Shown piece after piece: positions 9,547-38,113 of a stretch of 64,000 nt of DNA. The notes under the pieces are model-generated. The model ran no database searches. It was given only the letters and a program-made list of their open reading frames with translations, and was not told the DNA's origin. Each line of letters begins with the position of its first letter. Position 1 is the stretch's first letter. Origin of the DNA: an uncultured delta proteobacterium (GTDB lineage Bacteria > Desulfobacterota > Binatia > DP-6); the NCBI GenBank assembly GCA_963811605.1, contig CAWESA010000011.1, forward strand, positions 159,698 to 223,697, in the 5' to 3' direction. The translations under genes and the position numbers were made by a program.

Positions 9547-9746
9547 CGGGTCAGGTGCTATGGACGCGCCCGTTCGACACGGGCTGGGAGGGAGTCGATG
9601 GATGAGACGTCGCGGCTGACCGTTCAGATCGTCGATCCCGCAGGCCCGGTCAACCATCCGCACACGAAGTCGGATCCCCAGCCGGACGCGAGGTGCGTGC
9701 GCTCCTCGCGACTCGGGTGAGGGATCGGGCACGACGCGTTCCGCTC

Positions 9747-10238
9747 GTGCTCGGCCATCCGTCTCGCCTGCTCGGTCTCGCCGCGCTCGCGTTCGCACTC
9801 GCCGGCTGTGCCGGAAGCGGCTCCGACTCGGGCGGCGGTGGTGGCAACGGGGGCGGCGGGACCAACTGCAAGAATCCCCCGCCCCCGACCGTGTCCTTCG
9901 CTGGCAACATCCAGCCCATCTACAACCGCTCCTGCGCCACCTCGACGGCGTGCCACATCGGCCCCACCTCGGGGGCAGGGCTCCAGCTCCAGCAGGGCAT
10001 CGCGTACGGCGCGACGGTGAACGTGCCGTCGACGCAGCAGCCGAGGCAGCTCCTGGTGAAGCCGGGCGACCCGGACGCCAGCTATCTCCTGCGCAAGGTC
10101 GAGGGGAGCGCCGGGATCTCCGGCCTGCAGATGCCGCAGGGCTGTCCGGGCACGCCGCTGGGCGGCGCCGTCTGCCCCAGCCCGGACGAGATCACCGCCA
10201 TCCGGACCTGGATCATGGAATGCGCGCCGAACAACTGA
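9747..10238 (+). CDS. lipoprotein with a cytochrome-c-like Cys motif domain (PSCyt-like)
   Basis: With a GTG start at 9747 the lipoprotein signal is MLGHPSRLLGLAALAFALAGC, with a LAGC lipobox. A Gly-rich linker follows. The domain reads NIQPIYNRSCATSTACHIGPTSGAGLQLQQG...LLVKPGDPDASYLLRKVEG...MPQGCPG. Confidence 0.5.
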   Translation: MLGHPSRLLGLAALAFALAGCAGSGSDSGGGGGNGGGGTNCKNPPPPTVSFAGNIQPIYNRSCATSTACHIGPTSGAGLQLQQGIAYGATVNVPSTQQPRQLLVKPGDPDASYLLRKVEGSAGISGLQMPQGCPGTPLGGAVCPSPDEITAIRTWIMECAPNN

Positions 10239-11353
10239 TCTCCACCGCCGCCCTGCTGCTGGCGCTCGTGGCCACGCATGCCGCGGCCGAGCCCTACCTG
10301 GCGGTGCGGTCGGGCGCCAAGTGCAGCGACTGCCACACCAACCTCGACGGCGGCGGCAAGCGCACGGCGTTCGCCCACATCCACGCCCACGACATCCTCC
10401 ACGATCTGCGCATCCTCCCGCTCCCGAAGGGCGTCGAGAGCTTCAACGGCGAGATCAATCCCTACGTCTCCATCGGCGGCGATCTGCGCGTGCGGAGCAC
10501 GTCGACGTTCGATTCCGCCATCGACTCCGAGGGTCGCGTGCCCATGAACAGGGCCTTCCGGAGCCACTTCGCCTCCGAGGAGCTCGACGTCCAGGAGGCG
10601 CTCGGCTACATCCAGGTCGACCTCTGGCCCGACGTCCTCTCGCTGTACGGCGACTTCAACGCCGCCGGCGGCGGAGTCACCGCGCGCGAGACGTTCGCGC
10701 TGCTCAAGCTTCCCTGGGATACCTTCGTCAAGGGCGGCCGCTTCTTCCCGCCCTTCGGGCTCCGCATCTACGAGGATGCAGCCTACATCCGCACCGACAC
10801 CGGGTTCACGTTCCAGAATCCCGACGAGGGCATCGAGTTCGGGGCCATGCCGGGGCCGTTCTACATCGCCGCCTCGGTGACCAACGGCGCCGGCGGCGAT
10901 CGCGACGTGCTGACCTCGCTCAATGCCTACGGCATGTTCGAGGACGTTCCCGTGGTCCGGAACGTCCTCGTCGGCGCCTCGGTCGCGCGCCAGTCGAACA
11001 AGCGCACGGTGTCGGCGTTCTACGCCGGCGCGAACCTCTGGAAGTTCACCTATCTCGGCGAGTTCGACGTCTACGACGACCGCACCGTGCTGCCGCCCGA
11101 CACCGGCAGGGACCACTTCGCCTCCTACGCCGAGGTCAACCTCCTCCTCTTCGACTGGCTCAACCTGCGCGGCACGTTCGACTTCCTCAGGGTGTCGGGC
11201 AACCGCAACACGACGCGCTACACGATCGGCACCGAGCCGTTCATCGACCGGTTCTTCCAGCCCCGCCTCTACTACGTCATCAACAACGGGCCCGGGAACG
11301 AGCCGCAGCTCAACACGACGGCGATCGTGTTCGAGCTGCACTTCTTCTTCTAG
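10220..11353 (+). CDS. outer-membrane beta-barrel protein
   Basis: Starts MRAEQLISTAALLLALVATHAAA (signal peptide). Alternating amphipathic beta-strand pattern. C-terminal ...TTAIVFELHFFF (terminal Phe) is typical of OMPs. It overlaps the upstream lipoprotein gene by 19 nt, which suggests an operon. Confidence 0.5.
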   Translation: MRAEQLISTAALLLALVATHAAAEPYLAVRSGAKCSDCHTNLDGGGKRTAFAHIHAHDILHDLRILPLPKGVESFNGEINPYVSIGGDLRVRSTSTFDSAIDSEGRVPMNRAFRSHFASEELDVQEALGYIQVDLWPDVLSLYGDFNAAGGGVTARETFALLKLPWDTFVKGGRFFPPFGLRIYEDAAYIRTDTGFTFQNPDEGIEFGAMPGPFYIAASVTNGAGGDRDVLTSLNAYGMFEDVPVVRNVLVGASVARQSNKRTVSAFYAGANLWKFTYLGEFDVYDDRTVLPPDTGRDHFASYAEVNLLLFDWLNLRGTFDFLRVSGNRNTTRYTIGTEPFIDRFFQPRLYYVINNGPGNEPQLNTTAIVFELHFFF

Positions 11354-11355
11354 CG

Positions 11356-11709
11356 CTACTTCACGTCCTCGACGATCAAGCCGTTCACACCGCCCTGGGT
11401 CACCTTCTTCCCCTCCACCGTGATCGTCTTGGCGGCCGCCTCGAGCGCCGTCGCGTAGGCCTTCGGGTTCTCGTGATCCTCGAGCAGGAGAAATACCTGG
11501 CTGTCGTCGGTGAGGATGCCCATGGGCAGCCCCTTCTTGGCGCACGTCTCGGCGCACTTCTTGTGGCTCGGACCCTTGCTCGTCTCGGGGTGGTGCAGGT
11601 AGCAGGACATGTCGATCACTTCGCCGGTGACGCTGTCATCGGCTCGCGCCGTCACGATACCGCCCGCAAGCAGCGCCGCGGCCACGATCGTCGTTCGCAT
11701 CGCTCGCAT
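11356..11709 (-). CDS. small secreted protein, possible metal-binding (hypothetical)
   Basis: Signal peptide MRAMRTTIVAAALLAGGIVTARA. Cys/His cluster MSCYLHHPETSKGPSHKKCAETCAKKG. Protein-like composition otherwise. Confidence 0.4.
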   Translation of the reverse strand: MRAMRTTIVAAALLAGGIVTARADDSVTGEVIDMSCYLHHPETSKGPSHKKCAETCAKKGLPMGILTDDSQVFLLLEDHENPKAYATALEAAAKTITVEGKKVTQGGVNGLIVEDVK

Positions 11710-12077: not shown

Positions 12078-12456
12078 GAGACGTTCTGCTCTCCGGCATG
12101 GCCCCCGGCAAGGCCCCGCGACGCATCGCGACGCACGCTCGTCACACGACGATCGGCAAATTTTCAGTTGACGGCGGCGACCGACCTGCGCGAGGATGCG
12201 TTGCCATCACCGAGGGGGTACCACCAAGATGACCGGGATCGACGCCCTGTTCCTCGAACGACTCGTCATCGGCGGATTGCTGGCCGCGCTCGCAGTGTGT
12301 GTCGCATTCGGCCCCGAGCTCCGCCGCGCGCTGGCTCGCATCCGCCAACCCCGGACTGCCGACGAGCGGACCGCCATCGGCGTCGAGCCGACCGCGTCCT
12401 GACCTTCCCGCGTCCGCGAGTTTCGCCTCTGCGGCACCGCTGCTAGAGTCGCCGAC

Positions 12457-14841
12457 GTGGTGACCAGCCGCGCCCTGCCGCGCGGGGGGTGTCGCATCGC
12501 GACGACCGCGCTGATGGCGCTGGCCGCGGTGTTCGCCTGCCGCTCCGTACCTCCGCTCGCTGCCGCCCCGCCGGGAGCCACCGTGCCGCCGGTCGACGTG
12601 TCGCGGCTCCAGGTCCTGATGATCAACGGAGGCGGCAGCAAGAGCCAGAACTACCAATCCCATCTCCTGCACCTGCGCGGCCTGTACGACGTGCTGGAGC
12701 GCGCCGGCATTCCCGGCCCCATGATCTCGCTCTACGTCAGCGACGGGACCGATCCCGCACCGGACGTGGCCGTGCGCGAGGCCCAGCCAGAGGCGGACTT
12801 CTGGCTGCTCGAGGGTAGCCGCCTGGCGGGGCCACTGCGCACGCCCGTGGTGTACGAGAACACCGTCGTTCCCGGGGCGACGCTGTCGGCGGCGACGCGC
12901 GCCGCGCTCCAGCACTGGTTCGACACCACCGGGCGCACGATGCGTCCCGGCGACACCCTCCTGCTCTACGTGACCGATCATGGGGTGCGGAACAAGGAGG
13001 ATCCGAGCAACAACGCGATCACGTTGTGGGGCGACAACGAGCGCTTGTCGGTGAAGGACCTCACCGCCATGCTCGGGCAGCTCGACCCCGGCGTGCGCGT
13101 CGTCGCTCTCATGTCGCAGTGCTACTCGGGAGGCTTCGCGGAGCTCGCCCGTGTCCGCTCGACGGGCGCCCTGCCGGACGGCTCGACCTGCGGATACTTC
13201 TCGTCGACCCCCGATCGCCCCGCCTACGGCTGCTATCCGGAGAACCGCGGCCGCGACAACGTCGGGCACTCCTTCCACTTCATCGAGGCGATCGCCGAGG
13301 GTGGAGAGTTCCTCCGCGCGCATGAGGAGGTCCTGGTGCGCGACGCCAGCCCCGACGTCCCGCTGCGCACCTCCGACGTATTCCTCGGCCACCTCCTGCG
13401 CCGCGCCGCCGACTCGGCGAAGCAGGATCCGAGCGCCTTCGCCGATCGCTTCCTGCGTGCCGCCCGGGCCGATCCGGCATCGTTCGAGCCCGAGCTGCGC
13501 CTGCTCGATCGCATCGGACAGGCGTATGGATTCGCCGGCCCGCGGTCGCTGCACGAGCTCGATCAGCAAGCCGGTCGCGTGCCCGACCTGGCGGCGCAGC
13601 TGCGCACTCAGCACGCCGCGTGGGAGGCGGCCCTCGATTCCGCCGCCCGGGCCAATCTCGACCGCTTCCTCGAGCGCGAGCCGAGCTGGAAGACGCGCAC
13701 CGACGAGCAGACGCTGCGCAGCCTCACGCCGGCGGCCGCACGCACGCTGACCGGCGAGCTGCTGCGCGACCTCGGACCGTCGACCCGCGCCGATGCGAGC
13801 GTCGAGCACCGCCTGGAGGTGCTGCGATCGCGCACCGAGGAGTCCGGCGAGGTGGCCTATCGCATGGATGTCCGCGACGGCGTCCGGCTCCGGCTCCAGG
13901 CCCTCCTCACGACCGTCGCCGGGCGCGCCTATCTCGCCGAGCGCGGCACCCCGGAGGAACGCGCCGCCTACGAGGCCCTGCGCCGCTGCGAGGCGTTCGC
14001 GATCTCCCCCGTGCCGTTGCCACCGGAGCTGCAGCTGTCGCGTCCCGAGGCGTTTCCTGCCTTCGATGCCGATCTCGCGGCGGTCGCGCGCGTCACGCCC
14101 GGGTGGATGGGCATTCAATTTCGCCAGGCGTCGGACTCCGCACGCGCCGCCGCCGGCCTGTCGCCCGGCGCGGCGAGCGTCCTGTCGGTGTACGACGGCT
14201 CGCCCGCACGCCGGGCCGGCCTGCGCCCGGGCGACATCGTGCTCGGACCGCCGCATCTGCACTTCGCGGAGCGCGACCAGATCCGGGAGTGGACGATGCT
14301 GTCCGCGGTCGACGAGCCCGCCAGGTTGGACGTGCTGCGTGACGGGCGTCCGCTCGACGTCACGCTCACGCCGAAGCCGTTCCCGCAGAAGCTCCCGGCC
14401 CTCCCGGGCCCGCCCAAGGTCGGGAGCGCCGCCCCGCCGCTGCGGCTCGGCGCGTATCGCGGGACGCCGCCGCGCTCGCTCGCCACCGGCACGCCGCACC
14501 TCCTCTTCTTCTGGGCGACGTGGTGTGCCGTCTGCAAGTCCGCGCTTCCCGAGATCGTCGCCTTCGAGCACGACCGCCGAACACCGGTGGTGGCGATCAC
14601 CGACGAGGACACGAACCGGCTGGATCCGTTCTTCGCGCAGCACGTCGGCCCCTTCCCCGCCCTGGTGGCGACCGACGAGACCCGTCAGGCCTTCCTGACG
14701 TACGGCGTCAGCGGCATGCCCACCTTCGTGCTGGTCGACGGCAAGGGCATCGTCCGCGGCTACGCGACGGGCTACTCCCCGGCCAAAGGCCTCCCGCTCG
14801 ACGGCTGGCGCTGGGCCAAGGCGCCGGCGCCGAAGTCCTGA
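12457..14841 (+). CDS. secreted multidomain protein: caspase-fold peptidase (C13/legumain-like), PDZ, TlpA-like thioredoxin
   Basis: 794 aa with a signal peptide. Catalytic-dyad-like motifs LLLYVTDHGV and VVALMSQCYSGGF match the legumain/GPI8 spacing. PDZ domain (WMGIQFRQ...SVLSVYDGSPARRAGLRPGDIVLG). C-terminal redoxin domain with WATWCAVCKS (CxxC) and GMPTFVLVD. Confidence 0.75.
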   Translation: MVTSRALPRGGCRIATTALMALAAVFACRSVPPLAAAPPGATVPPVDVSRLQVLMINGGGSKSQNYQSHLLHLRGLYDVLERAGIPGPMISLYVSDGTDPAPDVAVREAQPEADFWLLEGSRLAGPLRTPVVYENTVVPGATLSAATRAALQHWFDTTGRTMRPGDTLLLYVTDHGVRNKEDPSNNAITLWGDNERLSVKDLTAMLGQLDPGVRVVALMSQCYSGGFAELARVRSTGALPDGSTCGYFSSTPDRPAYGCYPENRGRDNVGHSFHFIEAIAEGGEFLRAHEEVLVRDASPDVPLRTSDVFLGHLLRRAADSAKQDPSAFADRFLRAARADPASFEPELRLLDRIGQAYGFAGPRSLHELDQQAGRVPDLAAQLRTQHAAWEAALDSAARANLDRFLEREPSWKTRTDEQTLRSLTPAAARTLTGELLRDLGPSTRADASVEHRLEVLRSRTEESGEVAYRMDVRDGVRLRLQALLTTVAGRAYLAERGTPEERAAYEALRRCEAFAISPVPLPPELQLSRPEAFPAFDADLAAVARVTPGWMGIQFRQASDSARAAAGLSPGAASVLSVYDGSPARRAGLRPGDIVLGPPHLHFAERDQIREWTMLSAVDEPARLDVLRDGRPLDVTLTPKPFPQKLPALPGPPKVGSAAPPLRLGAYRGTPPRSLATGTPHLLFFWATWCAVCKSALPEIVAFEHDRRTPVVAITDEDTNRLDPFFAQHVGPFPALVATDETRQAFLTYGVSGMPTFVLVDGKGIVRGYATGYSPAKGLPLDGWRWAKAPAPKS

Positions 14842-14882
14842 TCTCGCACGCGGAGCTCCGCAGTTCCGTTGACCCGGCCTGC

Positions 14883-14896
14883 GTTAGCATGCTAAC
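14883..14896. promoter_or_regulatory. perfect 14-bp palindrome GTTAGCATGCTAAC upstream of the Cys-rich protein gene
   Basis: The sequence read directly is self-complementary. It lies about 30 bp upstream of the start at 14927 and could be a regulator-binding site. Confidence 0.25.
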
Positions 14897-14926
14897 TGCC
14901 GCCCGCTGGCAGCACCGCGTCCAGCC

Positions 14927-15859
14927 TTGCCTCGAGGAGACCAGCCCGTGCCGACCGCGCTCCGCTGCCTCACCTTGGTCCTCGCCGCCGTGCTCTGCGT
15001 GGGGGCCGCCCGCGCCCACGCGGACGGCTGCGGCGACGGCGTGCTCGATGCCGGCGAGACCTGTGACGACGGCTCGGCCAACGGGGCCTTCGTCTCGTGC
15101 TGTACGGCGACCTGCGCGCTGCGCGACGCCGGGGAGATCTGCCGCGCGTCCAGCGGCGCCTGCGACGTGCCCGAGACGTGCGACGGAACATCTCCGACCT
15201 GTCCCGCGGACATCGTCCTCCCGGACGGCGACGCCGACGGCATCTGCGACCCGTTCGATTCCTGCCCCTCGACACCCGACCCGGTTCAGGCCGACGACGA
15301 CGCAGATGGACTGGGCAACGCCTGTGATCCCTGCGCCAACGTCGTCCCCACCATCGTGCGGAAGGCCGTGCTGAAGATCTCGAAGCTGTTCACCGGACCG
15401 GGAGACGATCGCCTGAAGCTGAAGCTCACCGCCGAGGCCGTCCCGGCGCAGCCCGCACTCGATCTGACGGCGCAGGGCATCCGCTTCCTGCTCGCCGACG
15501 CCCTGGGCACCGTCATCATCGACGCGCGCCTGCCCGGCGGCCAGTACACCTCCAGCGTCCGCGCCGGGTGGAAGGGCAGCGGCTCCGGATGGAGCTACGC
15601 CAACGGAGGGCAAGTCCTGCCGCTCATCCAGGGCATCACGAAGGCCTCGGTCAAGGGACGCGCGTCCCGCCCGGGCACGTTCACCATCGCCGTGGTCGGC
15701 AAGAAGGGCAGCTACGGGGTCGTTCCCGGTGGCTTGCCGCTGTTCGCAACCGTGGTGCTGGACCCGCCCGTGGCAACCACGGGGCAGTGCGTCGAGGTGG
15801 CATTCGCCCCTCCGTCCGGCTGCTTTCTCTCCAGCAACGGGTCGGTCATCTGCAAGTGA
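14927..15859 (+). CDS. secreted cysteine-rich repeat protein (Myxococcus-type Cys-rich repeat + TSP3-like Asp-rich repeat + C-terminal domain shared with the next gene)
   Basis: Signal peptide. Cys-rich repeat DGCGDGVLDAGETCDDGSANGAFVSCCTATC. One CRASSGACDVPETCDGTSPTCPAD unit. Acidic repeat DGDADGICDPFDSCP...DDDADGLGNACDPC (thrombospondin type-3-like). The C-terminal 190 aa are paralogous to the C-terminus of the protein encoded at 15991-18465. Confidence 0.7.
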   Translation: MPRGDQPVPTALRCLTLVLAAVLCVGAARAHADGCGDGVLDAGETCDDGSANGAFVSCCTATCALRDAGEICRASSGACDVPETCDGTSPTCPADIVLPDGDADGICDPFDSCPSTPDPVQADDDADGLGNACDPCANVVPTIVRKAVLKISKLFTGPGDDRLKLKLTAEAVPAQPALDLTAQGIRFLLADALGTVIIDARLPGGQYTSSVRAGWKGSGSGWSYANGGQVLPLIQGITKASVKGRASRPGTFTIAVVGKKGSYGVVPGGLPLFATVVLDPPVATTGQCVEVAFAPPSGCFLSSNGSVICK

Positions 15860-15990
15860 GGCGGCCCGGGACGCAATTTTCTTGCCTGCTGTCGCGTTTT
15901 TCTTGACACGCACACCGGGGCTCGTGGTACCTCGCCCCCGCCAGACCCGGCTCGACTGGACGAGCGGGGCACACCAGAGGGGGGAACCGG

Positions 15991-18465
15991 ATGACCGGAG
16001 CACGTCGACGCACCATCGGCACGGGAATCGCCGCACTCGCGAGCCTCGTGCTCCTGTCCGCCGGCCCGGCCCGTGCGCAGTCGATCACGGGCCTCGCCGC
16101 GGTCAAGAACGCCGGTAACAACCCGGACAACTTCCAGGACGGCCTCACCGTCAGCTACCAGCGCACCAGCACCGTCGGCGTGCTGTCGAACAACGGCGTC
16201 GTGGCGCGCGTGCGCTACCAGGAAGCCGTCGGCGTCGACGTGGGCGCGTTCTCCTCGCAGAGCAACTCGCTCGCCAGCGATTACAACGTCAACTTCTCCG
16301 TCACGGCTCCGGGCGCCTACGACCTCAACATCACGACCAGCCTGAACGGCGCCTTCACGATCGAGGACGACGGCGACGGGCCGGGCACCGCCGACGCCAC
16401 CGGGGTCACCGGCACGCAGACGGGCGGCACGCTCGCCAGCGGCACGCTCAACCTCACCGATCCGGGTGGCCCGGTCACGTCGGGCAACGTCGGCTTCCTG
16501 CGCACGTCGGCAGCCACCATCCAGGGAACCAGCAACGGGTCGCCCATCGCGCACACGCTCCGCTTCACCTGGAGCGCGAGCTGCAGCAGCAGCAACGGCT
16601 TCGTCACCGGCGGCGACGAGTGCGCCGTGCGGCTTGGCCTGCCCATCACCTACTCGGGGCAGACGGCCGGCAACTACCCCGGCGTCGGCGGTCGCACTGC
16701 CGCCAACGACGGGCACTTCGTGACCATCTCGCTGGTGTCGCTGTGCGGCGACGGCGTGGCGCAGGGAGCGCGTGGCGAGCAGTGCGATCTCGGCGGCGGC
16801 CTCAACGGCATGCCGGGGACCTGCTGCTCCTCGAGCTGCCAGCTGGTCTCCAACGGCACGACCTGCCGGGCCGCGGCGGGTGACTGCGACCTGGCCGAGA
16901 CCTGCAACGGCTCGAGCCCGAACTGCCCGGCCGACCTCAAGAGCACCGCGCTCTGCCGTGCCGCGCCCGGGGTGTGCGACGTCGCCGAGTTCTGCAACGG
17001 CGTGAGCAACACCTGTCCGGCCGATGGCTTCGCACCGGCGAGCACCGTCTGCCGCGCCGCAGCGGGCAGCTGCGACGTGGCCGAGAACTGCACCGGCACG
17101 GGTCCGAACTGTCCCGCCGACGTCATCCGGTCGAACGGCTTCGTGTGCCGGGGCAGCGCCGGCGTGTGTGACGTCGCCGAGACCTGCAACGGCGTGAGCA
17201 CCGCCTGCCCGGCCGATGGCTTCCTCCCGTCCAGCACTTCGTGTCGCGCCGCCGCGGGCGATTGCGACGTCGCCGAGAACTGCACCGGCAGCGGGCCGGC
17301 CTGCCCGGCCGACGCCGTGGAGCCCAGCACGACCGTCTGTCGTCCCGCCAGCGGGGACTGCGACGAGGCGGAGCACTGCGACGGCGCCGGCGTCGCCTGT
17401 CCGCCGGACGCCTTCCTCGGCAGCACGAGCGGCTCGTTCGTGTGCCGGCCGTCGGCCGGCGCCTGCGACACGCAGGAAGTGTGCGACGGGTCGGGTCCGA
17501 ACTGTCCGCCGGATCTCGTCGCCGGTGCGGGGACCCCGTGCCGCGCCTCGGCGGGCGTGTGTGACCTGGCCGAGACCTGCGACGGCTCGAGCGCGGCGTG
17601 CCCGCCCGACGCCAAGAGCACCGGCGTCTGCCGGCCGGCTGCCGGTATCTGCGACGTGGCAGAAAGCTGCAACGGCGTGAGCAACACCTGCCCGGCCGAT
17701 GCCTTCGCCCCCGCCAGCACCGTGTGTCGTGCATCGACCGGCGCGTGTGACGTCGCCGAGAACTGCACCGGCTCGAGCGCATCCTGCCCGGCCGACACCG
17801 GCCTGCCCGACACCGACGGCGATACGGTGTGCGACGCCATCGACAACTGCATCTCGATCCCGAACGCGTCGCAGGCCAACAACGACAGCGACCCGCTCGG
17901 CGACGCGTGCGATCCCTGCACCAACATCGTTCCCACCGTGCAGGCCAAGGCCAAGCTCAGCATGACCAAGCTCCTGGCGCCGACGGGCGACGACAAGCTG
18001 ACCTTCTCGAGCTACTTCACCGGCGTGCCGGGCACCCCCACCGTCGATCCGATCACCAACGGCGCCCGCTTCATCGTCGTCGACTCCACCGGCGCATTCC
18101 CGGTCGACGTGACGATCCCGGGCGGCGCCTACAACACGGCCAACAAGGTCGGCTGGAAGGCCAACGGCAGCGGCACGTCCTTCACCTACAAGAACGCCGG
18201 CACCGTGGTCCCCCTGATCAACGGCATCAACAAGGTGCAGATCAAGGCCATCCCCTCGACCCCCGGGAAGTTCAAGACGTCGGTCAAGGGCAAGAACGGC
18301 ACCTATCCGGTGAACTCGGCGAACCTGCCGCTGGTCGGCACGATCGTGATCGATCCGCCGTTCGCCAGCACCGGTCAGTGCGGCGAGGCACAGTTCCCGG
18401 CCGCGCCGCCCGCCAAGCCCAGCTGCATCACCGTGGGCGCTGGCAAGACGGTCAAGTGCAAGTAG
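15991..18465 (+). CDS. large secreted cysteine-rich tandem-repeat protein (824 aa)
   Basis: Ribosome-binding site AGAGGGGGGAA. Signal peptide MTGARRRTIGTGIAALASLVLLSAGPARA. About ten tandem ~32-40 aa units with the pattern C[RP]xxxGxCDxAExCxGxxxxCPxD. A TSP3-like repeat (DTDGDTVCDAIDNC...NNDSDPLGDACDPC). The C-terminal domain is homologous to that of the 14927-15859 gene. Confidence 0.8.
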   Translation: MTGARRRTIGTGIAALASLVLLSAGPARAQSITGLAAVKNAGNNPDNFQDGLTVSYQRTSTVGVLSNNGVVARVRYQEAVGVDVGAFSSQSNSLASDYNVNFSVTAPGAYDLNITTSLNGAFTIEDDGDGPGTADATGVTGTQTGGTLASGTLNLTDPGGPVTSGNVGFLRTSAATIQGTSNGSPIAHTLRFTWSASCSSSNGFVTGGDECAVRLGLPITYSGQTAGNYPGVGGRTAANDGHFVTISLVSLCGDGVAQGARGEQCDLGGGLNGMPGTCCSSSCQLVSNGTTCRAAAGDCDLAETCNGSSPNCPADLKSTALCRAAPGVCDVAEFCNGVSNTCPADGFAPASTVCRAAAGSCDVAENCTGTGPNCPADVIRSNGFVCRGSAGVCDVAETCNGVSTACPADGFLPSSTSCRAAAGDCDVAENCTGSGPACPADAVEPSTTVCRPASGDCDEAEHCDGAGVACPPDAFLGSTSGSFVCRPSAGACDTQEVCDGSGPNCPPDLVAGAGTPCRASAGVCDLAETCDGSSAACPPDAKSTGVCRPAAGICDVAESCNGVSNTCPADAFAPASTVCRASTGACDVAENCTGSSASCPADTGLPDTDGDTVCDAIDNCISIPNASQANNDSDPLGDACDPCTNIVPTVQAKAKLSMTKLLAPTGDDKLTFSSYFTGVPGTPTVDPITNGARFIVVDSTGAFPVDVTIPGGAYNTANKVGWKANGSGTSFTYKNAGTVVPLINGINKVQIKAIPSTPGKFKTSVKGKNGTYPVNSANLPLVGTIVIDPPFASTGQCGEAQFPAAPPAKPSCITVGAGKTVKCK
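16861..17810 (+). repeat. in-frame tandem coding repeats (~100-120 nt units, ~10 copies) encoding the 4-Cys CxxxxGxCDxAExCxGxxxxCPxD module
   Basis: Repeated tgccg.gccgc...tgcgacgt.gccgagaactgcaccgg.....tgcccggccga nucleotide units are visible. The repeated peptide units are listed in the CDS entry for 15991-18465. Confidence 0.7.
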
Positions 18466-18550
18466 GGTAGCCGGGACCCACCCAGGCCGCGCACGACCAG
18501 CGCGGGCCCCGGTCGCCTCGGCGATCGGGGCCCGCCCGCGTCTCGAGGCG

Positions 18551-19139
18551 CTACTTCGAGTACTTCACCGAGCAGCCGTACGGCTTGGTCTCGGCCACCG
18601 CCACGGGCTTGCCCGCGGTGATCTCGTCGAGCGCCTCGCCGACGTAGTTGCGCGGGGAGTCGCTCGCGCCGGCGGCGTCATCGTCGATCGCGCCCTGGTA
18701 GACGACCGTGCCCGTCTTGTCGATGACGAACATGTGCGGCGTCGTCCTCGCGCCGTACGCGCCGCCCACGGCGCCCCCGCTGTCATCGAGGATCGGGTAC
18801 TTCATGGCCTGCTCGGCGTGCCAGGCGCGATCCTTGGCCGCGTCCATGTAGCTGGTGCTGTTGACCGCGAGCCACACGACGTCCTTGTCCTTGAAGCGAT
18901 CCGCGAGCGAGCTCATGGTCTTGGCGCGGTAGTGGCGCTGCACGAACGGACAGTCGGGATTCGTCCACTCGAGCACGACGATCTTGCCGCGCAGCTTCGC
19001 GAGGTCGACCTCGCGTCCGTCCTGATCCTTGGCCGTGAACTCCGGGCGCGGGCTGCCCCACGCTCACGGCCGCCCACGATGCGCCCGTCGCGGCAAGAGA
19101 CAGCGCTGCCGCCGCGAGCCACACGCTTCCTCGTGTCAT
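18551..19139 (-). pseudogene. TlpA/ResA-like thioredoxin-family (redoxin) protein with a +1 frameshift
   Basis: Frame A gives signal peptide MTRGSVWLAAAALSLAATGASWAAVSVGQPAP and then goes off-frame. Frame B continues EFTAKDQDGREVDLAKLRGKIVVLEWTNPDCPFVQRHY...HMFVIDKTGTVVYQGAIDDD. The sequence gcgcccgGagttcacggcc carries one extra base, around 19040-19050 on the plus strand. Confidence 0.6.
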
Positions 19140-19987
19140 CTAGGTCTCCTTTCCATCCAGGTCGATGGGAACGCGCAGGCCGTGGCGCGCGCCGTGCTCA
19201 TCGGTCCAGGCCACGACGCTCTCCAGCGTCGATCCCTCCGGGCGCTCGCCCGGCAGGCGCTTGGCGCGAAAGCTGAGCCGCGTCCGGGTTCCGTCGGTCT
19301 CGCTGCTCGCCGACTCGACCGTCAAGCGCCCGGTCGTCGGGTGGGAACCACTCGACGCTCGCGGGTGCCTCGCTTCCAGTCGACGGTCACGGTCACGTCG
19401 CCGACACTGCCGTCCGCCGGCACCGCGCCTCGTGCGTGAGCGTCGCGGGGCCGCCGGCGCCGGCCGCCTCGATCGGGAAGCGTGGAGCCCACTGCGTGAA
19501 GAGCGCGGGATCGGCCGCGGCCCCGTCGGCGCCGACGGTCAAGCTCCAGCGACTTCTTGCCCCGGATGCACAGGCGCTCGCACGCCAGCCAGCCGACCTC
19601 GGCGCGCAGCGCCACCGCGGTCGCGTCGGGGACCGCCGCCGGCGGGGTCACGGTCGCACGCAGGAGCACGACGTCATCGTAGCCGTAGCCGACGACTCCG
19701 CCGGGTTGCTGGAAGCGCCGCGGCACCGGCCAGGCGAGGGGACCGATGCGGTAGCCTTCCGGCGCCGTCCAGCGGACCGAGGTCGGCAGTCCGGAGTCTC
19801 CGGGGTTGAGCCAGTAGACGTGCCAGCCCGGCTGCATGCGAAGCACGACGCCGACATCGAACGGCTTCCCCGGCTCGACACGGGCCGTGCTCGCCACTGC
19901 CGTCGCCTCGACCGGCTGGACGGCCGGCGCCGCGACGGCACGCGCCGCTGCGAACGCGATGATCAATCCCCCGAACAGGCGCCGCAT
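19140..19987 (-). pseudogene. DsbD N-terminal (alpha) domain-like thiol:disulfide interchange protein, reading frame disrupted in its 3' half
   Basis: Signal peptide MRRLFGGLIIAFAAARAVAA. Hallmark PGWHVYWLNPGDSGLPTSVRWTAPEGY and the W..C....C motif (VGWLACERLCI). After about residue 150 the called frame becomes poly-Arg. Protein-like sequence continues in two other frames (LTVGADGAAADPALFTQWAPRFPIEAAG...; VTVTVDWKRG...; ...LESVVAWTDEHGARHGLRVPIDLDGKET ending at 19140). Confidence 0.5.
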
Positions 19988-20020: not shown

Positions 20021-21312
20021 TCAACCCCAGACCAGCGGACCACGCAGCGCGACCGTGGGAACCTCGATCTCGCGCAGCCCCTCGCGGGCGAGGACCGCGT
20101 TGGCGGCGAGCCGGCCGCTCACCACGGCCGCCTCCATCAGAGCGGCGGGCACGTCGAGCCGCACGTGGTCACCGGCGAGGAAGAGGTTCGCTATCGCCGT
20201 CCGGGTGGCCGCCCGGTGGGCGTGATCACCCGGCGCCCAGCGCGTGAAGTCGTCGCGGCGCTGGAACTCCTGGTGCCGCACACGCGTCCCCGCCAGCTCG
20301 GGCACCAGTCGGCGCTGCTCGTCGATCAGCCCGCCGGCCACGTCGCCCGCCGCCGCCTCGGACGTCATCGCATAGGCGTGCACCTCCACCACCGCGCCGC
20401 GGGTCCGGCGCGCCCACGCCCGGAAGGGCTCCTGGAAGTGCGAGTAGATCGCGATCGAATCGGTGTAGCGGTAGCCGGACACGGTGGCGAATGCGTCGCG
20501 CACCGGCGCCACCGGGCGATCGAGCCAGAGTCGCAGCACGGCATACGGATCGGCCTCCCCCAGCCGGGCGATGCGATCCGCCAGCTCCGGCGTACCGAGC
20601 TCCGAGGCCGCGGCGAGGGCCCGCACCCCGCGCACGTCGCACGCCACGATGCAGTGGTCGCACGCCACCCGCTCCGTGCGCCGGCCGGCCGGTGCCGTCA
20701 CCACCACGTCGGCTCCCTCCAGTCGCGCGTCCAGCGCCGCCAGCGCCCGTCGAGCGCGATCGGGCCGCCGGCGGCGAGCGCGACGAACAGGGGCATGCCG
20801 CTCGATCCGGGGAGCGCACGCCGGCCGCTGGCCGGCAGGGAGCGGTGCGGCACGCGCGCCCCGGCGCCGGTCGTGGTGCGGCCGAAGCGTTCCGCGACCC
20901 GATCCCCGTAGGGCACGGGGTAGCCGGCCGACTCGATCAGGTCGCCGTCGGCGCCCGCTGCCGCCAGGAGCTGCGCGAGGCTGTAGTACTGGGCGAAGAA
21001 TCCGTGGAAGCCATGCTCCACGGGGAAATCCTCGCCGAGGGCGCGGACCTGCCAGCCGCCGAGCTTGCCGCCCAGCTCGGACCCCTGCTCCACCAGGGTC
21101 ACCTGGAAGCCACGGCCGGCCAGCTCGGAGGCGGCCGCGATGCCCGCCAGCCCGCCTCCGATCACGACCACGCGTCGGGGTGTCGGGACCCGCTCCGGCA
21201 GCCCGGCAGACTCGCCGGGCACGCGGCTCCGGCGCGGCTGGATCGCCGCCAGGCCCCCGGCGGCGACCAGCAGACTCGCGCCCACTCCGCTCAGGAAGCG
21301 CCGGCGGTGCAC
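20021..21312 (-). pseudogene. Tat-exported FAD-dependent oxidoreductase (amine-oxidase/phytoene-desaturase-like fold) with a frameshift
   Basis: N-terminal frame has a Tat-like RRRFLSGVGASLLVAAGG and the Rossmann motif VVVIGGGLAGIAAASELAGRGFQVTLVEQGSELGGK. C-terminal frame has ...ADVVVTAPAG...DSIAIYSHFQEPF...IANLFLAGDHVRLDVPAALMEAAVVSGRLAAN. The two parts are in different frames. The junction is at about 20780-20870. Confidence 0.6.
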
Positions 21313-21321
21313 CCGTCCAGA

Positions 21322-27412: not shown

Positions 27413-27510
27413 GCGGCGTCCACCATTCATCTCCGGCCGCCGTCGCGTCAAGCAACACGGGCGAGCAGACCCCCTGGCGATTGGCAGGCGGCCGGGGCAT
27501 GAGTCCAGGT

Positions 27511-28447
27511 GCGATGCAGGCCGCTCGCGTCCACCGCTTCGGCTCGCCCGACGTCATCGCGATCGAGGACGTTCCTCGACCCGCACCCGGTACGGATGAG
27601 GTCCTCGTGCGCGTGCAGGCCGCCGGCGTCGGCCCGTGGGACGCCTGGATCCGAGCCGGCAGGAGCGTCCTGCCCCAGCCGCTGCCGCTGACTCTCGGCT
27701 CCGACCTCTCCGGCAGCGTGCAGGCCGTCGGCTCGGCGGTGAGGGGCTTCGCGCCGGGGGACCCGGTCTTCGGCGTCACCAATCCCCGCTTCACCGGCGC
27801 CTACGCGGAGTACGCGGTCGCCGTGAGCGGCATGATCGCGCGCCGACCCGCGCACGTGGATGCGGTCGAGGCGGCGGCGGTCCCCGTGGTTGCCGTCACC
27901 GCCTGGCAGATGTTGTTCGAGCGGGCGCGCGTGGGCGCCGGCACGACCGTCCTGGTCCACGGCGGCGGGGGGAGCGTGGGTAGCGATCGCCGTCCAGCTC
28001 GCGCGGCGCGAAGGCGCCAGCGTGATCGCGACGGCGGGTGCCGACGATGTCGACTACGTCAGGGGTCTCGGCGCCGCACTGGTCGTCGACCATCGCGCGG
28101 CACGCTTCGAGGAGGTCACCGGTCCGGTGGACGTCGTCATCGACACCGTCGGGGGCGACGTCCAGCGCCGTTCGTTCTCCGTCCTCGCGCGGGGCGGCGT
28201 GCTGGTCTCGATCGTCTCCGAGCCGGATGCCGGCGAGGCGGCGCGACACGGCGTGCACGCGACGTTCCTGCTCGTCAAGGTCACGACGGCGCACCTGGCA
28301 CGCATCGCCGCGCTGCTCGACGACGGCAGCCTCACGACGCGCATCGGCACGGTCCTGCCCCTGTCCGAGGCGCGGTCGGCACACGAGATGCTCGACGGGA
28401 GCCGTGCACGCCCGCGCGGGAAGATCGTCCTGCGCGCCCGGAGCTGA
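27511..28447 (+). pseudogene. NADPH:quinone oxidoreductase / zinc-type alcohol dehydrogenase (MDR family) with a +1 frameshift
   Basis: N-terminal frame MQAARVHRFGSPDVIAIEDVPRPAPGTDEVLVRVQAAGV...VLVHGGGGSVGS. The rest continues in the +1 frame: IAVQLARREGASVIATAGADDVDYVRGLGA...GKIVLRARS. There is an extra base in ggtagcGatcgcc, at about 27984-27988. Confidence 0.7.
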
Positions 28448-28483: not shown

Positions 28484-31400
28484 CTAGCTGCCGCAGAACC
28501 GTGCCGGCGGGATGGGCGTGTCGGCGCACGCGCCGAGCAGCTTCCCCTGTGCCCGGATCAAGGGGGCGTTCCAGCCCGGCGCGCTCTGGCGAATACATCC
28601 CGCCGGCGGGCCCAGGGGCCGGTGGTCCTGATCGTCGGCAACGAACTTCTCCGGGCCCGGGAATGTCACCCCGAAGCCGTACACGCCCCCGTCGGGCCAG
28701 TCGACGTCCTTGCCTGCCCATTGGCCGCAGAGGTCGTTGTCCTTGCAGATCTTCGCGAAGTCTCCGTCCTCGTTGCACACGCAGTCCTTCTTGCGGCTGC
28801 CCAGCGGGAGGTCGCGTGCCTTGCAGAAGCTCGCGGGCTGGCAGAAGTCCCGTTGCGCCTGCGCGAACTCGGTCTTGAACGTGTCGAACCCCATGTCGAC
28901 CGTGACGGTCAGGATGCCGGTGGTGGAATCGTACACGCGCAGCCATCCCTGTGGCCAGGTGTTGCGATCGTCGGTGAACTGGAAATGGCTGGAACCGGGG
29001 AACACGCGCGTCAGGAAGACGTTCGTCTCGGCGTAGCCCGGGTCGAGCCCCGCGCCGACGTAGAGCTGATACACCTGGTGGGTGGTCGGCGTCGCGTAGA
29101 TGAAGAGGACGTAGTACGTCCGGTCGGCCTCGAAGATGTTCTTGAACGGGCTGCTCGCCTGCTTCATGGGACCGGCGGCGGTGTCGATGTAGTAGATGCC
29201 GTTGTTCGCGGTGAGCGTGCTCCGCTGCCAGAGGTTCGCGCCCATCATCCGGATCGCCTGCGTGCCGCCGAACTGCTCCCCGCTGGTCAGTCCCTGCCGG
29301 TAGAGCGGAACCCCGTAGCACGTGCCGGTGGTGCAGTCGCTCCACCAGTTCGGGTTCTGGAGCGGCTCCGGCGTCACCGGGTCCGCCGGCAGGCGATAGC
29401 CGCAGGCCGGCCCCATCTCCGGCGGCTGGGGACCATTCAGCTGCGCACACGCCGGATAGACGACGGTCGTCAGGTACTCGTACGGGCTCGTCTTGGCCGT
29501 GCCCGCCGGAAAGTCCGCCGGCGGATTCGCGACGTCGGAGCCGCACTCGACCGCCTCGATCGGTGCGTCGAAGTAGCCATCGAAGTTGACCGAGATGGTC
29601 TCGCGCTCCGCCCCCTTCGCGCCGTCCGGATTCGCGATCAGTCCGGTGAGCGAGCCGTCGTCGTCGTTCAGCACCGTCTGCCGGTCGACGTCGGTGAACC
29701 CCTTGAAGAGACCCTGGGCCGGATCCACCGGGGTCGGATACGTGCAGTAGCGCTTCTCCACTCGTCCCTCGTCGGTGTTGAACGTGCCCGGAGCGAACTC
29801 CGGCTGGATCACGAAGTGACGGATGTCCGCCTTGTCGAAGTAGAGGTTCTGCGAGTGGAACGCCGGCGGGTAGAAGAACCCGTTCGGCTGCTTCCACCCG
29901 ATCGCGGCGTTCGGCAGGTAGCAGGTGCCGGTTGCGTCCTTCGGCATCCCTCCGAGGCGGCCGTACAGCTTCATCGCGCCGGGACATGCATTCCCCTGGG
30001 TCTTCTGACACTGCGACGCGAGGTCCGGGAGCCTCGCCGGCACGATGTCCAGGTAGGCGTTGGAATCCTGGTAGGAGGGTCCGTCGTAGATGCTGAACAG
30101 GCGCTGGTTGGTGGCGAAGTTCGCGACCTCGAAGTCGACCCCGTCGTCCGCAGCGATGCAGTGATTGGGGAGGGCGTTGAGCGTGGAGTCGTTGATCGGG
30201 CATTGCAGGCCCGAGTGCGGGTTGAACGGACCGACGTCCGCCGCATATGGATTCGCCTTCGGATCCTCGCTCACGTCCTTCTGGGTTCGGCCCACGAAGG
30301 CGCTCTTCGCCGCCACCGACCAGACCCCGTCGATGACCGAGGACCGGGTGTAGTCACCGCCGGTCACGAAGGTGAGGCCGCCGTTCTGCACATCGGTGAT
30401 CGCGCTGTTCGAGAGCACGTACCAGAACTGTCGCAGCCACACGGCCGCGAAGTTCGTATCGGCCCAGTTGAACGACGAGGTATAGCGATCGAGGACCGTG
30501 ACCATGCAGTTGGCGATCTGTCGATCCTCGGGCGGCGGCAGCGGAGCCGGTCCGTTGGCGCCGCACTTCTTGACCGTGGCGTCGTCCCCGCAGTCGAGGT
30601 CCGCCACCTTCTTCGGATCGGGGCCGCAGCGGGTCGCCGGACGCGACCCGCCCGCGACCACTCGTGGATAGTAGACTTCCAGATCGATGTTGCCCTGAAC
30701 GACCGGGGCGAGCGGGTTCGGGACGGGCGCCAGGTGCTCCTTGTCGCCGGGGTTGACGAGGGGCGCGACCCCGTTGCAGTCGGCGAACTGGCCGACGGTC
30801 TGGAACGAGTTCATCGCCGACGTGCACGTATTGCCGACGAAGTTCATCAGCGGCGTCGTTCCCGCGCGTCCGAGATTGCTCTGCATCGAGGCATAGCCCG
30901 TCCAGGCCATCTTCGAGTACGGCGCGCACATGAAGCCCTCGCCGCTCGACAGCTGGCACTCGGATTTCCCTTCTCGCGGCGGCGGCTGGTTGAGGCACGC
31001 GGCACCGCGCTTGCCGGTCGCCGGATCGTAGCAGGAGAACGAGTTCTCCCGGCCGCTGTTGTACCCGGGGAGGAGCCAGTAGCAGGCGCCGCAGCTCCCC
31101 GCGCCGGCGGCGAAGTTGTAGCGGAAATCGTTCCAGCCATTCATGATCCAGAACACGGTCGGGGTCTCGGAATCGGAGTGGTACGGCGAGTTGTGCTGAC
31201 GATCCGTGAAGGTCGCCGAGAGAATGCCGGGAACCTTGCGGGGATTCTGGCTGTTGTCGACCGCGGCGCGGGCGAGGATCCCGATGTTCGAGTACAGCTT
31301 GTTGTCCGTCTCCGTACCGTCCTCGATGTAGTAGCCATGGCCGATGGACATGTAGCCGACGTTGCGCGCGAGCAGGACGTCCTGGGTGGCGTGCAACGTG

Positions 31401-32707: not shown

Positions 32708-33259
32708 CGTGCGCTCCTGGTTCAGATGACGGCGGCCACGTTCATACTCGCCGGGTCGATCGCGGCCAGCACCTGTCCGTTTCAACGATCCCGCCCCTTG
32801 CAGTCGTGTGGTGCTGCAGATGACTCCGGCATAGGCGGTTGTGGCGAGAGGAGCTTCCTGACGAAGCCGAGCAGCTCCGCGGCCGAGCCGAAGCGTGCGG
32901 CGACACCGGAGGCGATGTGCTCGGCGCGGCCGATGAAGAGGTCGCCGCCTGGGGTGCCCGGCGCCCGGAGCTGGATCACGAAGGCACGGTCGGGTGGAAG
33001 CGGCCCGTCCATGTCCACGACCCACGGTGGGTCGGCGCTGCGGTCGTCGGGTGCCATGGTCTTCCCCCTACCGCCCGAGCGACGCCCCGGTCCGTAAAGA
33101 ACGCGAAGAGTTCGCGTAAAATCGAGACTCCTCGGGGGACCTCAGTCGGGGCGAGGGGCAGGCGATGCGGCGGTCACTCGCCGTCGGATCACCGGGGCCT
33201 GTTGCGGCCCGTTGGAGCAAGCCGCCCGACACGGTATCTAGCCGATCACCCGATCGACC

Positions 33260-36159: not shown

Positions 36160-36333
36160 GCCGGCGCGCCGCGGTGGCGCGTCGAGACGTCGCATGCTCG
36201 CAGTCTCCAAGCGAGCACTGCCGGCTGCGAAGCGCGGCTATTCACTGAGGATTGACACGTTCGGGGACCGTCCACCGTCTCTTCCGGTATCTCGTTCCTC
36301 CGTACACATCGGCACGCCAAGGCATCACGCAGC

Positions 36334-38113
36334 ATGACTCTCGACTCGCGAGGGTCGGCCGGCGCTGCCTCTGCCGCCCGCGCTCGTGACTCCGCCACGC
36401 GGTCGCGGCGATCCGTTCCCGTTTCCCTGCTCCTGTGCGCCATCGCAGGGGCCACGGGATTCGGCCCGTCGCGGGACGCCCTGGCCGATCCCGCGGTCTC
36501 GTCACTCCAGCGCGTGCCGGTATGCGGCGATCAGGACGCCTCGTCGGTACAGCTCAAGTGCGCCGACTTCCTGCCCATCTCCGACATCGAGCTCTTCCGC
36601 GTTCCGGGCCAGGGCCCGGTGGACCTGACCTTCGACTTCGTCTTCGCCGAGGCAGCCGTCCCCAACGAGCTCGGCCTCTTCCGGGTCGACGCGATCGACG
36701 GCAGGATCGGGAACCTCAGTCCCGCCGAGCCGGGGTATCTCGCCGCCGCGCTTGCCCGCACGCAGACCATCTTTGCCTCGGGTTCGGATGCCTTCGTCGG
36801 CGACCGGATGGTCCAGCGTCGACGGCGGCGACCTCCTGGTCTTCCTCATCGTGCACGGCGGCAGCCTCGCGGAGCTGCGGGCGGCGAACCCGACCAACGA
36901 TCCCGCCATGACGCCGGTCGCCTTCTTCTCGCTCACGCGAATCAATCCCGATCCCGGCTCGCGCTACGGCGGCGACCATCTCGTCGGCTTCCAGAGCGCG
37001 TCGTCACCGCTCACCGAGTTCGCCTTCGAGGACACCGGTCTGTTCAGCGACTGGGACTTCGACGACGTCGTCTACACGGTCTCGGCACGCCTCGAGCGCC
37101 CCGCCTGCGACGGCCAGGACGGCGACGACGATGGCGTGGCCGACGTCTGCGACACCTGCCCGGCGGTCGCCAATCCCGATCAGCGCGACAGCGATGGCGA
37201 CCTGGTCGGCGACACGTGCGACAACTGCCTGCGGGTTCCGAACCTGGCGCAGACGGACTCCGACGGCGACGGCCGCGGGGACGCGTGCAGCCTCGAGGTG
37301 TGCGGGGACGGCCGCGACAACGACGGCAACGGCCTCGTCGATGCCGCCGACCCGTTGTGCCCGACCCTGCGGATCGAGAAGCTGGCGCAGCCGCTCAGCG
37401 GCGCCAGGATCGGCGCGACGGTCCGGGTGAAGGGACGGGGCTTCGGCACCACCCGCGGAGCCGTCGAGCTGGGCACGGAGGACGTCTCCGTCGACGGCTG
37501 GCGCGACAGGAAGGTCACCTTCTCGGTGCCGCCGCTGGCCGGCGGCGTCTATCTGGTGCGCGTGCTCCGGGGCGAGGCACGCAGCGAGCACGAGGCTCTG
37601 TTCGTGCCAGGGACGCCCGTCTACCGGAGGAAGGCCACGCTCCGGGCGCTCGCCGACGTGCTCGGCACGACGTCCTGGTGGCCGTACTACGACGGCCTGG
37701 CGCGCCGCGCGCCGGCGCTGGCGAATCCGTTCTGGCTGCACGACTCGCTGGTCTCCGATCCCGGCACCGCGGGCTTCGTGACCTCGGCCATCGCGTCCAT
37801 CGACGCCACGACCTACGGGAGGTCCGGACGGCAGCGCCGCCGCGCGGCCAAGACGTTCAGCGCGTGCGAGCGGCACTACCTCCGCCAGATGCCCGACGAG
37901 GTGCTCGATCGATACCTCGCCTGCGCCGCCTATCCGGGCCCCAAGAAGCGCTTCCGCGCGCTTCCCCCGGACGTGCAGCTGGCCATCCTCAATGCGGGCG
38001 CACCCGCAACCGGCAGATACTGCTTCGCGGGGTCGGCGTACCAGAGCGCGTGTCGCGACGTCCTGCGCGCCGGTGGCATCAGCGACGCCGCTCTCGCCAC
38101 GCTCGGGTTCTGA
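36334..38113 (+). CDS. secreted DUF4114 + thrombospondin type-3-like repeat protein (frameshift near 36805-36815)
   Basis: Frame A: signal peptide, then [23 protein letters not shown]...[12 protein letters not shown]. Frame B continues ...[58 protein letters not shown]...[19 protein letters not shown] (DUF4114-like). Then acidic TSP3-like repeats ([37 protein letters not shown]...[11 protein letters not shown]). Then an IPT/TIG-like segment and a C-terminal domain. Confidence 0.6.

Follow-up and report, generated by a model that had tools for sequence, protein, structure and literature searches.

A large Binatia family of disulfide-rich proteins with a shared C-terminal beta domain, and its variable redox neighbourhood

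The window analysed here is a 64,000-nucleotide stretch (GC content 71%) of contig CAWESA010000011.1, positions 159,698 to 223,697, from the uncultured Binatia assembly GCA_963811605.1. Its positions 12457-19987 hold five genes, among them two encoding paralogous cysteine-rich proteins. An initial annotation, made from the sequence alone, had proposed that three extracytoplasmic redox genes, namely a peptidase-PDZ-thioredoxin fusion (12457..14841, + strand), a redoxin (18551..19139, - strand) and a DsbD-alpha-like gene (19140..19987, - strand), form a dedicated folding or maturation module for the products of the two Cys-rich genes between them (14927..15859 and 15991..18465, both + strand). 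All five open reading frames (ORFs) were recovered in this arrangement, and proteins of the window are 100% identical to the database entries P0001 and P0053. The dedicated module was not borne out, failing on synteny for two of the three redox genes and for most members of the Cys-rich family. With a probability that we put at about 0.5, the region is instead made of three separate units that are neighbours in one Binatia lineage, not one dedicated system. The Cys-rich genes would belong, in tandem, to a very large family that is confined to Binatia and whose Sec-exported products are extracellular or surface proteins; the fusion would be a conserved enzyme of the periplasm, probably anchored by a lipid and with its His-Cys dyad intact; and the redoxin and DsbD-alpha-like pair would be an independent two-gene unit, a neighbour only in close relatives and without a link to the Cys-rich genes that could be demonstrated. 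The components are of known kinds, in new combinations and as new families, and the larger finding of the region is the C-terminal domain shared by the two Cys-rich proteins.

This domain comprises about 170 aa, with a conserved tail that holds three cysteines and ends in ...C-[K/R]. In the AlphaFold model of the small protein it is all-beta, with a predicted local distance difference test score (pLDDT) >90, the overall value being 81. A profile of the domain from which the adjacent TSP3 motifs were excluded matched 2,082 clusters built at 50% identity with E ≤ 1e-3, of which 1,461 reached E ≤ 1e-10. The match ended at the last residue of the protein, or at most four residues before it, in nearly all of the best 150 hits. 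Among 47 family ORFs from fetched loci, 0-3 residues followed the domain, and the same ORFs carried 0 to 61 four-Cys modules and 3 to 252 cysteines. The profile of the shared C-terminal region found 27 well-matching loci in other metagenome-assembled genomes (MAGs) of a species-representative genome collection, and all 27 lay in MAGs labelled (Candidatus) Binatia or bearing older delta-proteobacterial or Polyangiaceae labels, such as 'Deltaproteobacteria bacterium' and 'Polyangiaceae bacterium UTPRO1'. One further locus was obtained by exact look-up, giving 28 (loci in other assemblies are designated by L and a number below). Protein lengths in the family run from ~150 aa to >2,177 aa, usually from 700 to >2,100 aa, and tandem arrays of two to four genes are frequent among the 28 loci. 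One giant member, a partial ORF of at least 2,177 aa, has 252 Cys and ~61 four-Cys modules, and another has 1,834 aa and 183 Cys; giant members and tandem arrays are located at L009 3-6533, L016 5129-10630 and L013 163-10642.

The domain matched no described family or sorting signal among those searched. Pfam and NCBIfam gave no match over residues 141-310 of the small protein or 649-824 of the large one, the 25 Pfam families that occurred most often in 67 longer members all left it uncovered, and no convincing solved structural relative of it was found. The NCBIfam scan returned none of the myxobacterial repeat or MYXO-CTERM models (TIGR02232, TIGR04201, TIGR03901), only below-cutoff Omp28_seleno and MtsC matches over the TSP3 motifs, and neither Cys-rich protein matched the models of the type IX secretion C-terminal domain, PEP-CTERM or other known sorting signals. 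What precedes the domain varies widely. Disintegrin was present in 48 of the 67 longer members, and other passengers included DUF5122 and Sortilin/BNR propellers, lectins, Receptor-L domains and beta-helices as well as two enzymes, a carboxylesterase (COesterase) and a PETase-like hydrolase; DUF4215 was present only in some relatives. One terminal module serving such different passengers, usually behind a Cys-rich spacer, is the pattern that a sorting or anchoring domain would give. The module is also exchangeable, since a gene directly 3' of the fusion in another locus (L099, 2599-4710) encodes the family head and disintegrin modules and carries Pfam DUF7450 in the terminal place. A literature search on Binatia with disintegrin returned nothing relevant.

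The two proteins of the window follow this plan at different lengths. The small member (14927..15859, +) has 310 aa from a TTG start, or 303 aa from the ATG at 14948 as in database entry P0001. Its signal peptide is followed by a single complete disintegrin-like domain at residues 35-95, by TSP3-like motifs at 99-140 and by the C-terminal beta domain at 141-310. The large member (15991..18465, +; 824 aa) has a signal peptide, a head (~31-250), a disintegrin-like domain followed by nine more four-Cys modules (252-602), TSP3 motifs (606-648) and the C-terminal beta domain (649-824). Their paralogy, as annotated initially, was confirmed by BLASTP (E 3e-72, 45% identity across 264 aa), with an alignment spanning one Cys module, the TSP3 motifs and the C-terminal domain. 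Both carry Sec-type signal peptides by inspection, ending ARA|HA and ARA|QS, and neither shows a lipobox by inspection. The description 'dozens of cysteines in repeated modules' suits the large protein, with 54 Cys and ten units, and not the small one, with 18 Cys (16 past the signal peptide) and a single unit; from these counts, 27 and 8 disulfides would be needed, respectively. The head of the large protein gave no significant Pfam match (one below cutoff only) and no PDB match, and it recurs in L009, L011, L013, L016, L087, L088, L093, L099, L110 and L157.

The modules were assigned to the disintegrin-like fold by several routes. Pfam Disintegrin (PF00200; cutoff 35.1 bits) gave the large protein 204.7 bits over ten stretches and the small protein 36.9 bits, and relatives in L088 and L090 reached 289 and 365 bits. 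In Foldseek searches, the Cys module of the small protein matched the disintegrin-like domains of VAP2, a K-like snake venom metalloprotease (SVMP), bothropasin and ADAM22 with probability 1.0 (E 1.7e-3 to 2e-2, 30-40% identity, 68-101 columns). A phmmer search of the large protein against the PDB returned the disintegrin-like domains of RVV-X, bothropasin and VAP2 as well as the TSP3 repeats of COMP (E 4.8e-8). The Cys spacing is that of the ADAM/SVMP domain (CGDG..GE.CD.G ... CC..C.L..G..CR...G.CD..E.C.G.S..CP.D). The unit CRxxxGxCDxxExCxGxxxxCPxD is present in ten copies in the large protein and in a single copy in the small one, and the nine extra modules of the large protein are copies of the C-terminal four-Cys hairpin of the disintegrin domain. 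At the DNA level, Tandem Repeats Finder placed a tandem repeat within the large gene at 16863..17314 (+) with a period of 96 nt, corresponding to one 32-aa module, and its 192-nt two-module unit is 82% identical between copies. Between the modules and the C-terminal domain sit two TSP3 motifs, which in both proteins have the DxDxDGxxDxxDxC pattern of COMP and thrombospondin (PF02412) but number only two and score 17.5 against a Pfam cutoff of 25.

Unlike the ADAM and SVMP proteins, the family is bacterial and amplifies the C-terminal hairpin half of the domain into arrays, ten here and up to ~61 in relatives. No RGD was found in the modules, where the loop reads (A/S)xGxCD, and no metalloprotease domain was found in the Pfam scan; because both the RGD/KGD loop and the reprolysin domain are missing, an ADAM-type function is not to be assumed despite the fold. 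The closest described architecture is that of Myxococcus xanthus TraA, which has a PA14 head, Cys-rich tandem repeats (TIGR04201) proposed to form a rigid stalk, and a MYXO-CTERM tag (PMC3325183). The two share a signal peptide, a head, Cys-rich repeats of variable length and a C-terminal module common to many paralogues (PMC3325183). They differ in that the repeats of the present family are disintegrin-like, PA14 is lacking and a 170-aa globular beta domain takes the place of the MYXO-CTERM tag with its short transmembrane helix. Family proteins consist of a variable head or enzyme, 0 to ~61 disintegrin-like modules, two Ca-binding TSP3 motifs and the strictly C-terminal beta domain of ~170 aa; the modules may act as a rigid, disulfide-stapled spacer of adjustable length, and the C-terminal domain may serve to attach the protein to the cell surface or to sort it there. 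In soils and sediments, where the uncultured Binatia are abundant, the family provides these bacteria with proteins of up to 252 Cys that are built from the same disintegrin-like and thrombospondin-type modules as animal ADAM and extracellular-matrix proteins.

Directly upstream of the small gene lies the fusion (12457..14841, +), a probable lipoprotein of 794 aa whose assignment as a peptidase-PDZ-thioredoxin protein was upheld by Pfam and Foldseek. Its four domains are a legumain/GPI8-like (C13-type) Cys peptidase (~48-300), a helical part (300-512), a PDZ domain (545-640) and a thioredoxin domain of the CcmG/ResA/TlpA type (650-790) with WCAVC at 690-693. PDZ_2, Thioredoxin_8, AhpC-TSA and Redoxin scored above their Pfam cutoffs. 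Peptidase_C13 (PF01650) fell short of its own, with 21.4 against 22.8 bits, and is among the precomputed hits of many homologues. In the AlphaFold model (pLDDT 88.9), the N-terminal domain matched legumain and the glycosylphosphatidylinositol (GPI) transamidase subunit PIGK in Foldseek (E 2e-7, probability 1.0), the PDZ domain matched those of HtrA/DegQ, and the thioredoxin domain matched DsbE/CcmG/ResA with template modelling scores of 0.66-0.76. More than 1,000 homologues were found at E ≤ 1e-5, and the best-scoring 120 were all near full length and at least 51% identical. Among these 120, His175 (YVTDHG) and Cys222 (MSQCxSG), the clan-CD dyad, were invariant, as was Cys690, and Cys693 was kept in 97.5%. 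Cys28 of a lipobox-like VFAC, judged by eye, was kept in 76% of homologues.

The fusion thus shares the fold and the invariant His and Cys with the C13 (clan CD) enzymes legumain and GPI8/PIGK, from which it differs in being bacterial, periplasmic and only 15-17% identical. With TlpA, CcmG (DsbE) and ResA it shares the fold, the WCxxC motif and above-cutoff Pfam matches of the thioredoxin domain, to which it adds the C13-like peptidase, helical and PDZ domains; NCBIfam equivalog cutoffs for the thioredoxin part were not reached (40.7 vs 123 bits). A literature search for C13-PDZ-thioredoxin fusions retrieved nothing relevant and no characterised example.

To relate the Cys-rich family to redox genes, the 10-kb flanks of its loci were scanned with hidden Markov models (HMMs) for the C13, helical, PDZ and thioredoxin parts of the fusion, the redoxin and DsbD_N. 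Neither the fusion nor a PDZ or DsbD_N gene was present within the fetched 10-kb flanks of any of the 28 other Binatia family loci. A redoxin-like ORF occurred within 10 kb of two of them, both resembling ordinary AhpC/TSA peroxiredoxin genes. The family is therefore multi-copy and mostly unlinked to redox genes, and the expectation that such proteins are generally encoded beside redox genes did not hold.

From the side of the fusion, the picture was mixed. About 85 non-redundant fusion loci with 44-81% identity were collected by exact look-ups and a metagenome scan. For minimum flanks of 3, 5 and 9 kb, a family member lay 3' of the fusion in 6 of 40, 7 of 33 and 5 of 21 loci, respectively, compared with a chance of ~2% for a member within 5 kb, assuming 10-20 members per genome of ~6 Mb. 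The adjacency is on the same strand and often immediate (L086, L090, L093, L099, L110, L112). It was found in two upstream contexts, a Cyc2-like block and an unrelated ACS-CysRS-DUF4124 context (L093). Because this same-strand adjacency in two contexts exceeds the chance level, a general, non-dedicated link between the fusion and the family is plausible. Individual cases include L001, where the fusion is accompanied by the small gene and the first part of the large one; L090, where a member of 1,328 aa with 124 Cys is directly 3' of the fusion; and L088, with members of 1,161 and 787 aa 5.7 kb 3' of it. Two genomes, GCA_026129405.1 (L003, L088) and GCA_964432595.1 (L016, L087), carry both the fusion and the family. 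In a neighbour-joining tree of the fusions, the loci with a family member fell in the clade of the window and one smaller clade, and most clades had none. Neighbour clustering, which used stop-to-stop ORFs, was noisy owing to wrong-frame ORFs in high-GC DNA and served only to confirm that the fusion has no universal neighbour, and in it a family member was the sole recurrent downstream neighbour (11 loci). Of the 29 loci with 3 kb or more on each side, 14 had neither a Cys-rich gene nor the upstream block beside the fusion.

The redoxin and DsbD_N pair was even more restricted, being limited to the immediate clade of the window, that is, four non-redundant loci (the window, L084/L085, L086 and L091) whose fusions are at least 67% identical. 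Of the three redox genes, only the fusion recurs with the family (7 of 33 loci, as above), and the pair does not beyond the closest clade. L086 retains the fusion, one family member of 819 aa and the pair, and its large protein and fusion are comparably conserved relative to those of the window (70% and 67% identity). In L084/L085 (12504-13260 and 5770-6526, respectively) what remains of the small and large genes is the C-terminal 138 and 52 aa, respectively, and in L091 (~1619-2065) a single C-terminal remnant of 119 aa was found. Despite these remnants, the fusion, redoxin and DsbD_N genes are all intact in L084, L085 and L091, indicating that the Cys-rich genes can be lost while the flanking redox genes stay. 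The window shows the opposite, with intact Cys-rich genes and both small redox genes frame-broken.

The spacers point to the same division at the 3' side. Where the large gene and the redoxin gene converge, their 85-nt spacer contains a GC-rich hairpin with a 15-bp stem (18502..18535); RNA folding gave -58.6 kcal/mol, z was -3.6 for the + strand and -1.95 for the - strand, and the hairpin is likely a bidirectional terminator. No comparable structure was present in the 85-nt spacer between the fusion and the small gene or in the 131-nt spacer between the small and large genes (z = +0.5 and +1.1 against shuffles). Because no hairpin separates these genes, the fusion and the two Cys-rich genes probably form one transcription unit and are probably co-transcribed. 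The redoxin and DsbD_N pair is a separate convergent unit.

The pair itself was examined against its intact orthologues in L084 and L086, where the redoxin has 194-196 aa and the DsbD_N protein 281 aa. The redoxin gene (18551..19139, -) encodes a periplasmic thioredoxin-fold protein of the AhpC-TSA/Redoxin type that matches both Pfam models. Its active site has one Cys (WTNPDCPFV) in the window, L084 and L086, none of which shows a CxxC, and a C-terminal PYGCSVKY motif is conserved; the earlier label 'TlpA-like' is therefore only loosely right. The DsbD-alpha-like gene (19140..19987, -) yields, after repair, a protein of 281 aa with a signal peptide and a CxxxC (LACERLC). Its DsbD_N match (PF11412; 63 bits vs cutoff 25, E 3.5e-17) bears out the initial assignment, and the Cys pair (LACERLC/LACEKIC) is conserved. 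In these respects it resembles DsbD alpha or a standalone DsbD_N, and it differs from DsbD in that no membrane or gamma domains were found among the neighbouring genes examined, in an extra C-terminal half of ~130 aa and in being frame-broken here.

Both genes had been reported as frame-disrupted, and alignment to L084/L086 with three-frame translation located the breaks: one extra base near 19043 in the redoxin gene, and four frame-changing indels near 19535, 19433, 19371 and 19313-19330, within ~220 nt, in the DsbD_N gene. The out-of-frame segments still translate to conserved protein, and intact copies are present in all relatives that carry the pair. Selenocysteine or programmed recoding was ruled out, as the alignment to intact orthologues revealed small indels (four of one base and one 5-nt gap). 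Real pseudogenisation was not favoured because the repaired proteins are as close to those of L084 and L086 as the latter are to each other (redoxin, 74% and 65% vs 70%; DsbD_N protein, 59% and 57% vs 55%) and because unrelated genes are split too. The latter comprise an amine-oxidase-like gene (20024-21321), a Zn-dehydrogenase gene (27481-28444) and probably a regulator gene near 35.9 kb, so the frameshifts are scattered across the contig and not specific to redox genes. P0033, a homologue from another long contig, resembles a similarly frame-shifted product. Against a simple error model, 17 syntenic genes are clean and the four indels inside 220 nt stand beside 6 kb of clean sequence. The breaks are probably not biology and may be assembly errors, and those of this contig should not be taken as biological.

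How the three units relate was weighed against other explanations. That the fusion, redoxin and DsbD-alpha-like protein form a dedicated folding or maturation module for both Cys-rich proteins would suit the extracytoplasmic N-termini of all five products, the 8 and 27 disulfides required, and the five-gene order kept in L086 and, as remnants, in L084/L085/L091. We nevertheless regard it as very improbable. The redoxin and DsbD_N genes are adjacent only where the fusions are at least 67% identical, they are convergent and behind a hairpin, the redoxin has no CxxC, and decay of the Cys-rich genes has left the redox genes intact in L084/L085/L091, with the reverse in the window. Beyond this clade, 26 of the 28 other family loci lack a thioredoxin-fold gene within 10 kb, and the fusion and DsbD_N are missing there from all 28. 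An explanation by descent fares better and is still doubtful: the partners of the fusion would be the genes of the upstream block (a Cyc2-like haem porin, a lipoprotein and a 117-aa Cys protein), with the Cys-rich genes filling a variable slot, and its CcmG/TlpA-type thioredoxin domain would keep CxxCH cysteines reduced for haem attachment. The closest relatives of this domain are indeed the cytochrome-maturation reductases DsbE, CcmG, ResA and CycY, 12 of the 41 loci whose upstream flank reaches 3 kb have the block, with its conserved CxxCH protein, 5' of the fusion, and the content 3' of the fusion is variable. However, the fusion occurs equally often without the block (L086, L089, L093 and the 14 of 29 loci above), a family member also follows it in the block-less ACS-CysRS-DUF4124 context of L093, and peptidase and PDZ domains are not known as parts of cytochrome-maturation reductases.

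A sorting system, in which the C-terminal beta domain is the signal and the fusion the processing enzyme, with the PDZ domain binding the tail and the C13 domain cleaving or transferring the passenger, is also unlikely. Such a system would be similar to GPI8 in eukaryotes or to the clan-CD peptidase PorU in type IX secretion. In its favour, the N-terminal domain of the fusion matches PIGK besides legumain and has an invariant His-Cys dyad. An always-terminal domain with a ...C-[K/R] end behind diverse passengers, enzymes included, is a hallmark of sorting or anchoring; moreover, a family member is directly 3' of the fusion in two genomic contexts, and both occur in GCA_026129405.1 and GCA_964432595.1. 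On the other hand, no motif for cleavage was found, a signal of 170 aa and three conserved Cys would be a large one, the thioredoxin domain has no obvious sorting role and most fusion loci have no family member nearby. That the domain is the recognition module of an undescribed surface-display or secretion pathway of Binatia, with the fusion as its processing enzyme, we likewise hold to be improbable; the fusion could then be a bacterial, disulfide-aware analogue of GPI transamidase or PorU.

We therefore retain the reading of three separate units, in which the fusion may serve general envelope maturation or quality control of disulfide-rich exports, reducing or isomerising them before clipping, and the adjacent family members would be among its substrates and not its only ones. 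Several points weigh against this reading. The same-strand adjacency in two upstream contexts could mean a coupling tighter than a general factor would give; the redox HMMs derive from the lineage of the window, so very divergent thioredoxin-fold genes near other family loci were possibly missed; the metagenome loci are phylogenetically non-independent; and the stalk, anchor and substrate roles are analogies set beside directly observed domain content, family size, synteny statistics and frame breaks. If the C-terminal domain and the fusion are linked, they would represent a new bacterial way to mature or display disulfide-rich surface proteins; if they are unlinked, the apparent redox operon would be mostly a lineage-specific coincidence of neighbours.

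Further features were noted around these genes. Just 5' of the fusion is a small predicted membrane (hydrophobic) ORF (12229..12402, +), and ORFs of 45-58 aa occupy the same place in L084, L086, L087, L088 and L090. In the upstream block, the gene at 10217-11353 (+) encodes a protein of 378 aa with a signal peptide, a CxxCH (GAKCSDCH) and a C-terminal ...ELHFFF, resembling a Cyc2-type fused monohaem cytochrome-porin. The genes on its two sides are a lipoprotein gene (9693-10238, +) with a LAGC lipobox and an IQPIxNRSC...ACH motif, and a gene for a 117-aa periplasmic protein with three Cys (11356-11709, -); the block gave no Pfam or NCBIfam match. The region 3' of the fusion is variable across loci and contains tetratricopeptide repeat (TPR) proteins, a 2-oxoglutarate (2OG) oxygenase and other genes. 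In the more distant relatives a conserved minus-strand set is another recurrent neighbour on this side, with genes for two large TPR proteins, a 2OG-Fe(II) oxygenase and a protein of ~275 aa (L088, 12367-17875; L090, 16777-22355; L087, 12379-16697).

Beyond the DsbD_N gene, the split amine-oxidase/FAD-type gene (flavin adenine dinucleotide; 20024-21321, -) has an N-terminus like that of twin-arginine translocation substrates, lies in two frames and lacks its middle; it is absent at this position in L084 and L086, where the DsbD_N gene abuts a 120-aa cupin gene. The Zn-dependent dehydrogenase gene (27481-28444, +) has its ADH_N and ADH_zinc_N halves in different frames, and the AAA_16/Trans_reg_C regulator gene (33294-36245, +) probably has its C-terminal end in another frame (35914-36156, +). 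The window is rich in extracellular proteins, with a secreted-type protein of ~1,400 aa bearing a CEMIP beta-helix and a below-cutoff G8 at 28487-33067 (-), and a secreted-type protein with DUF4114, TSP3 repeats and a below-cutoff TIG at 36629-38110 (+).

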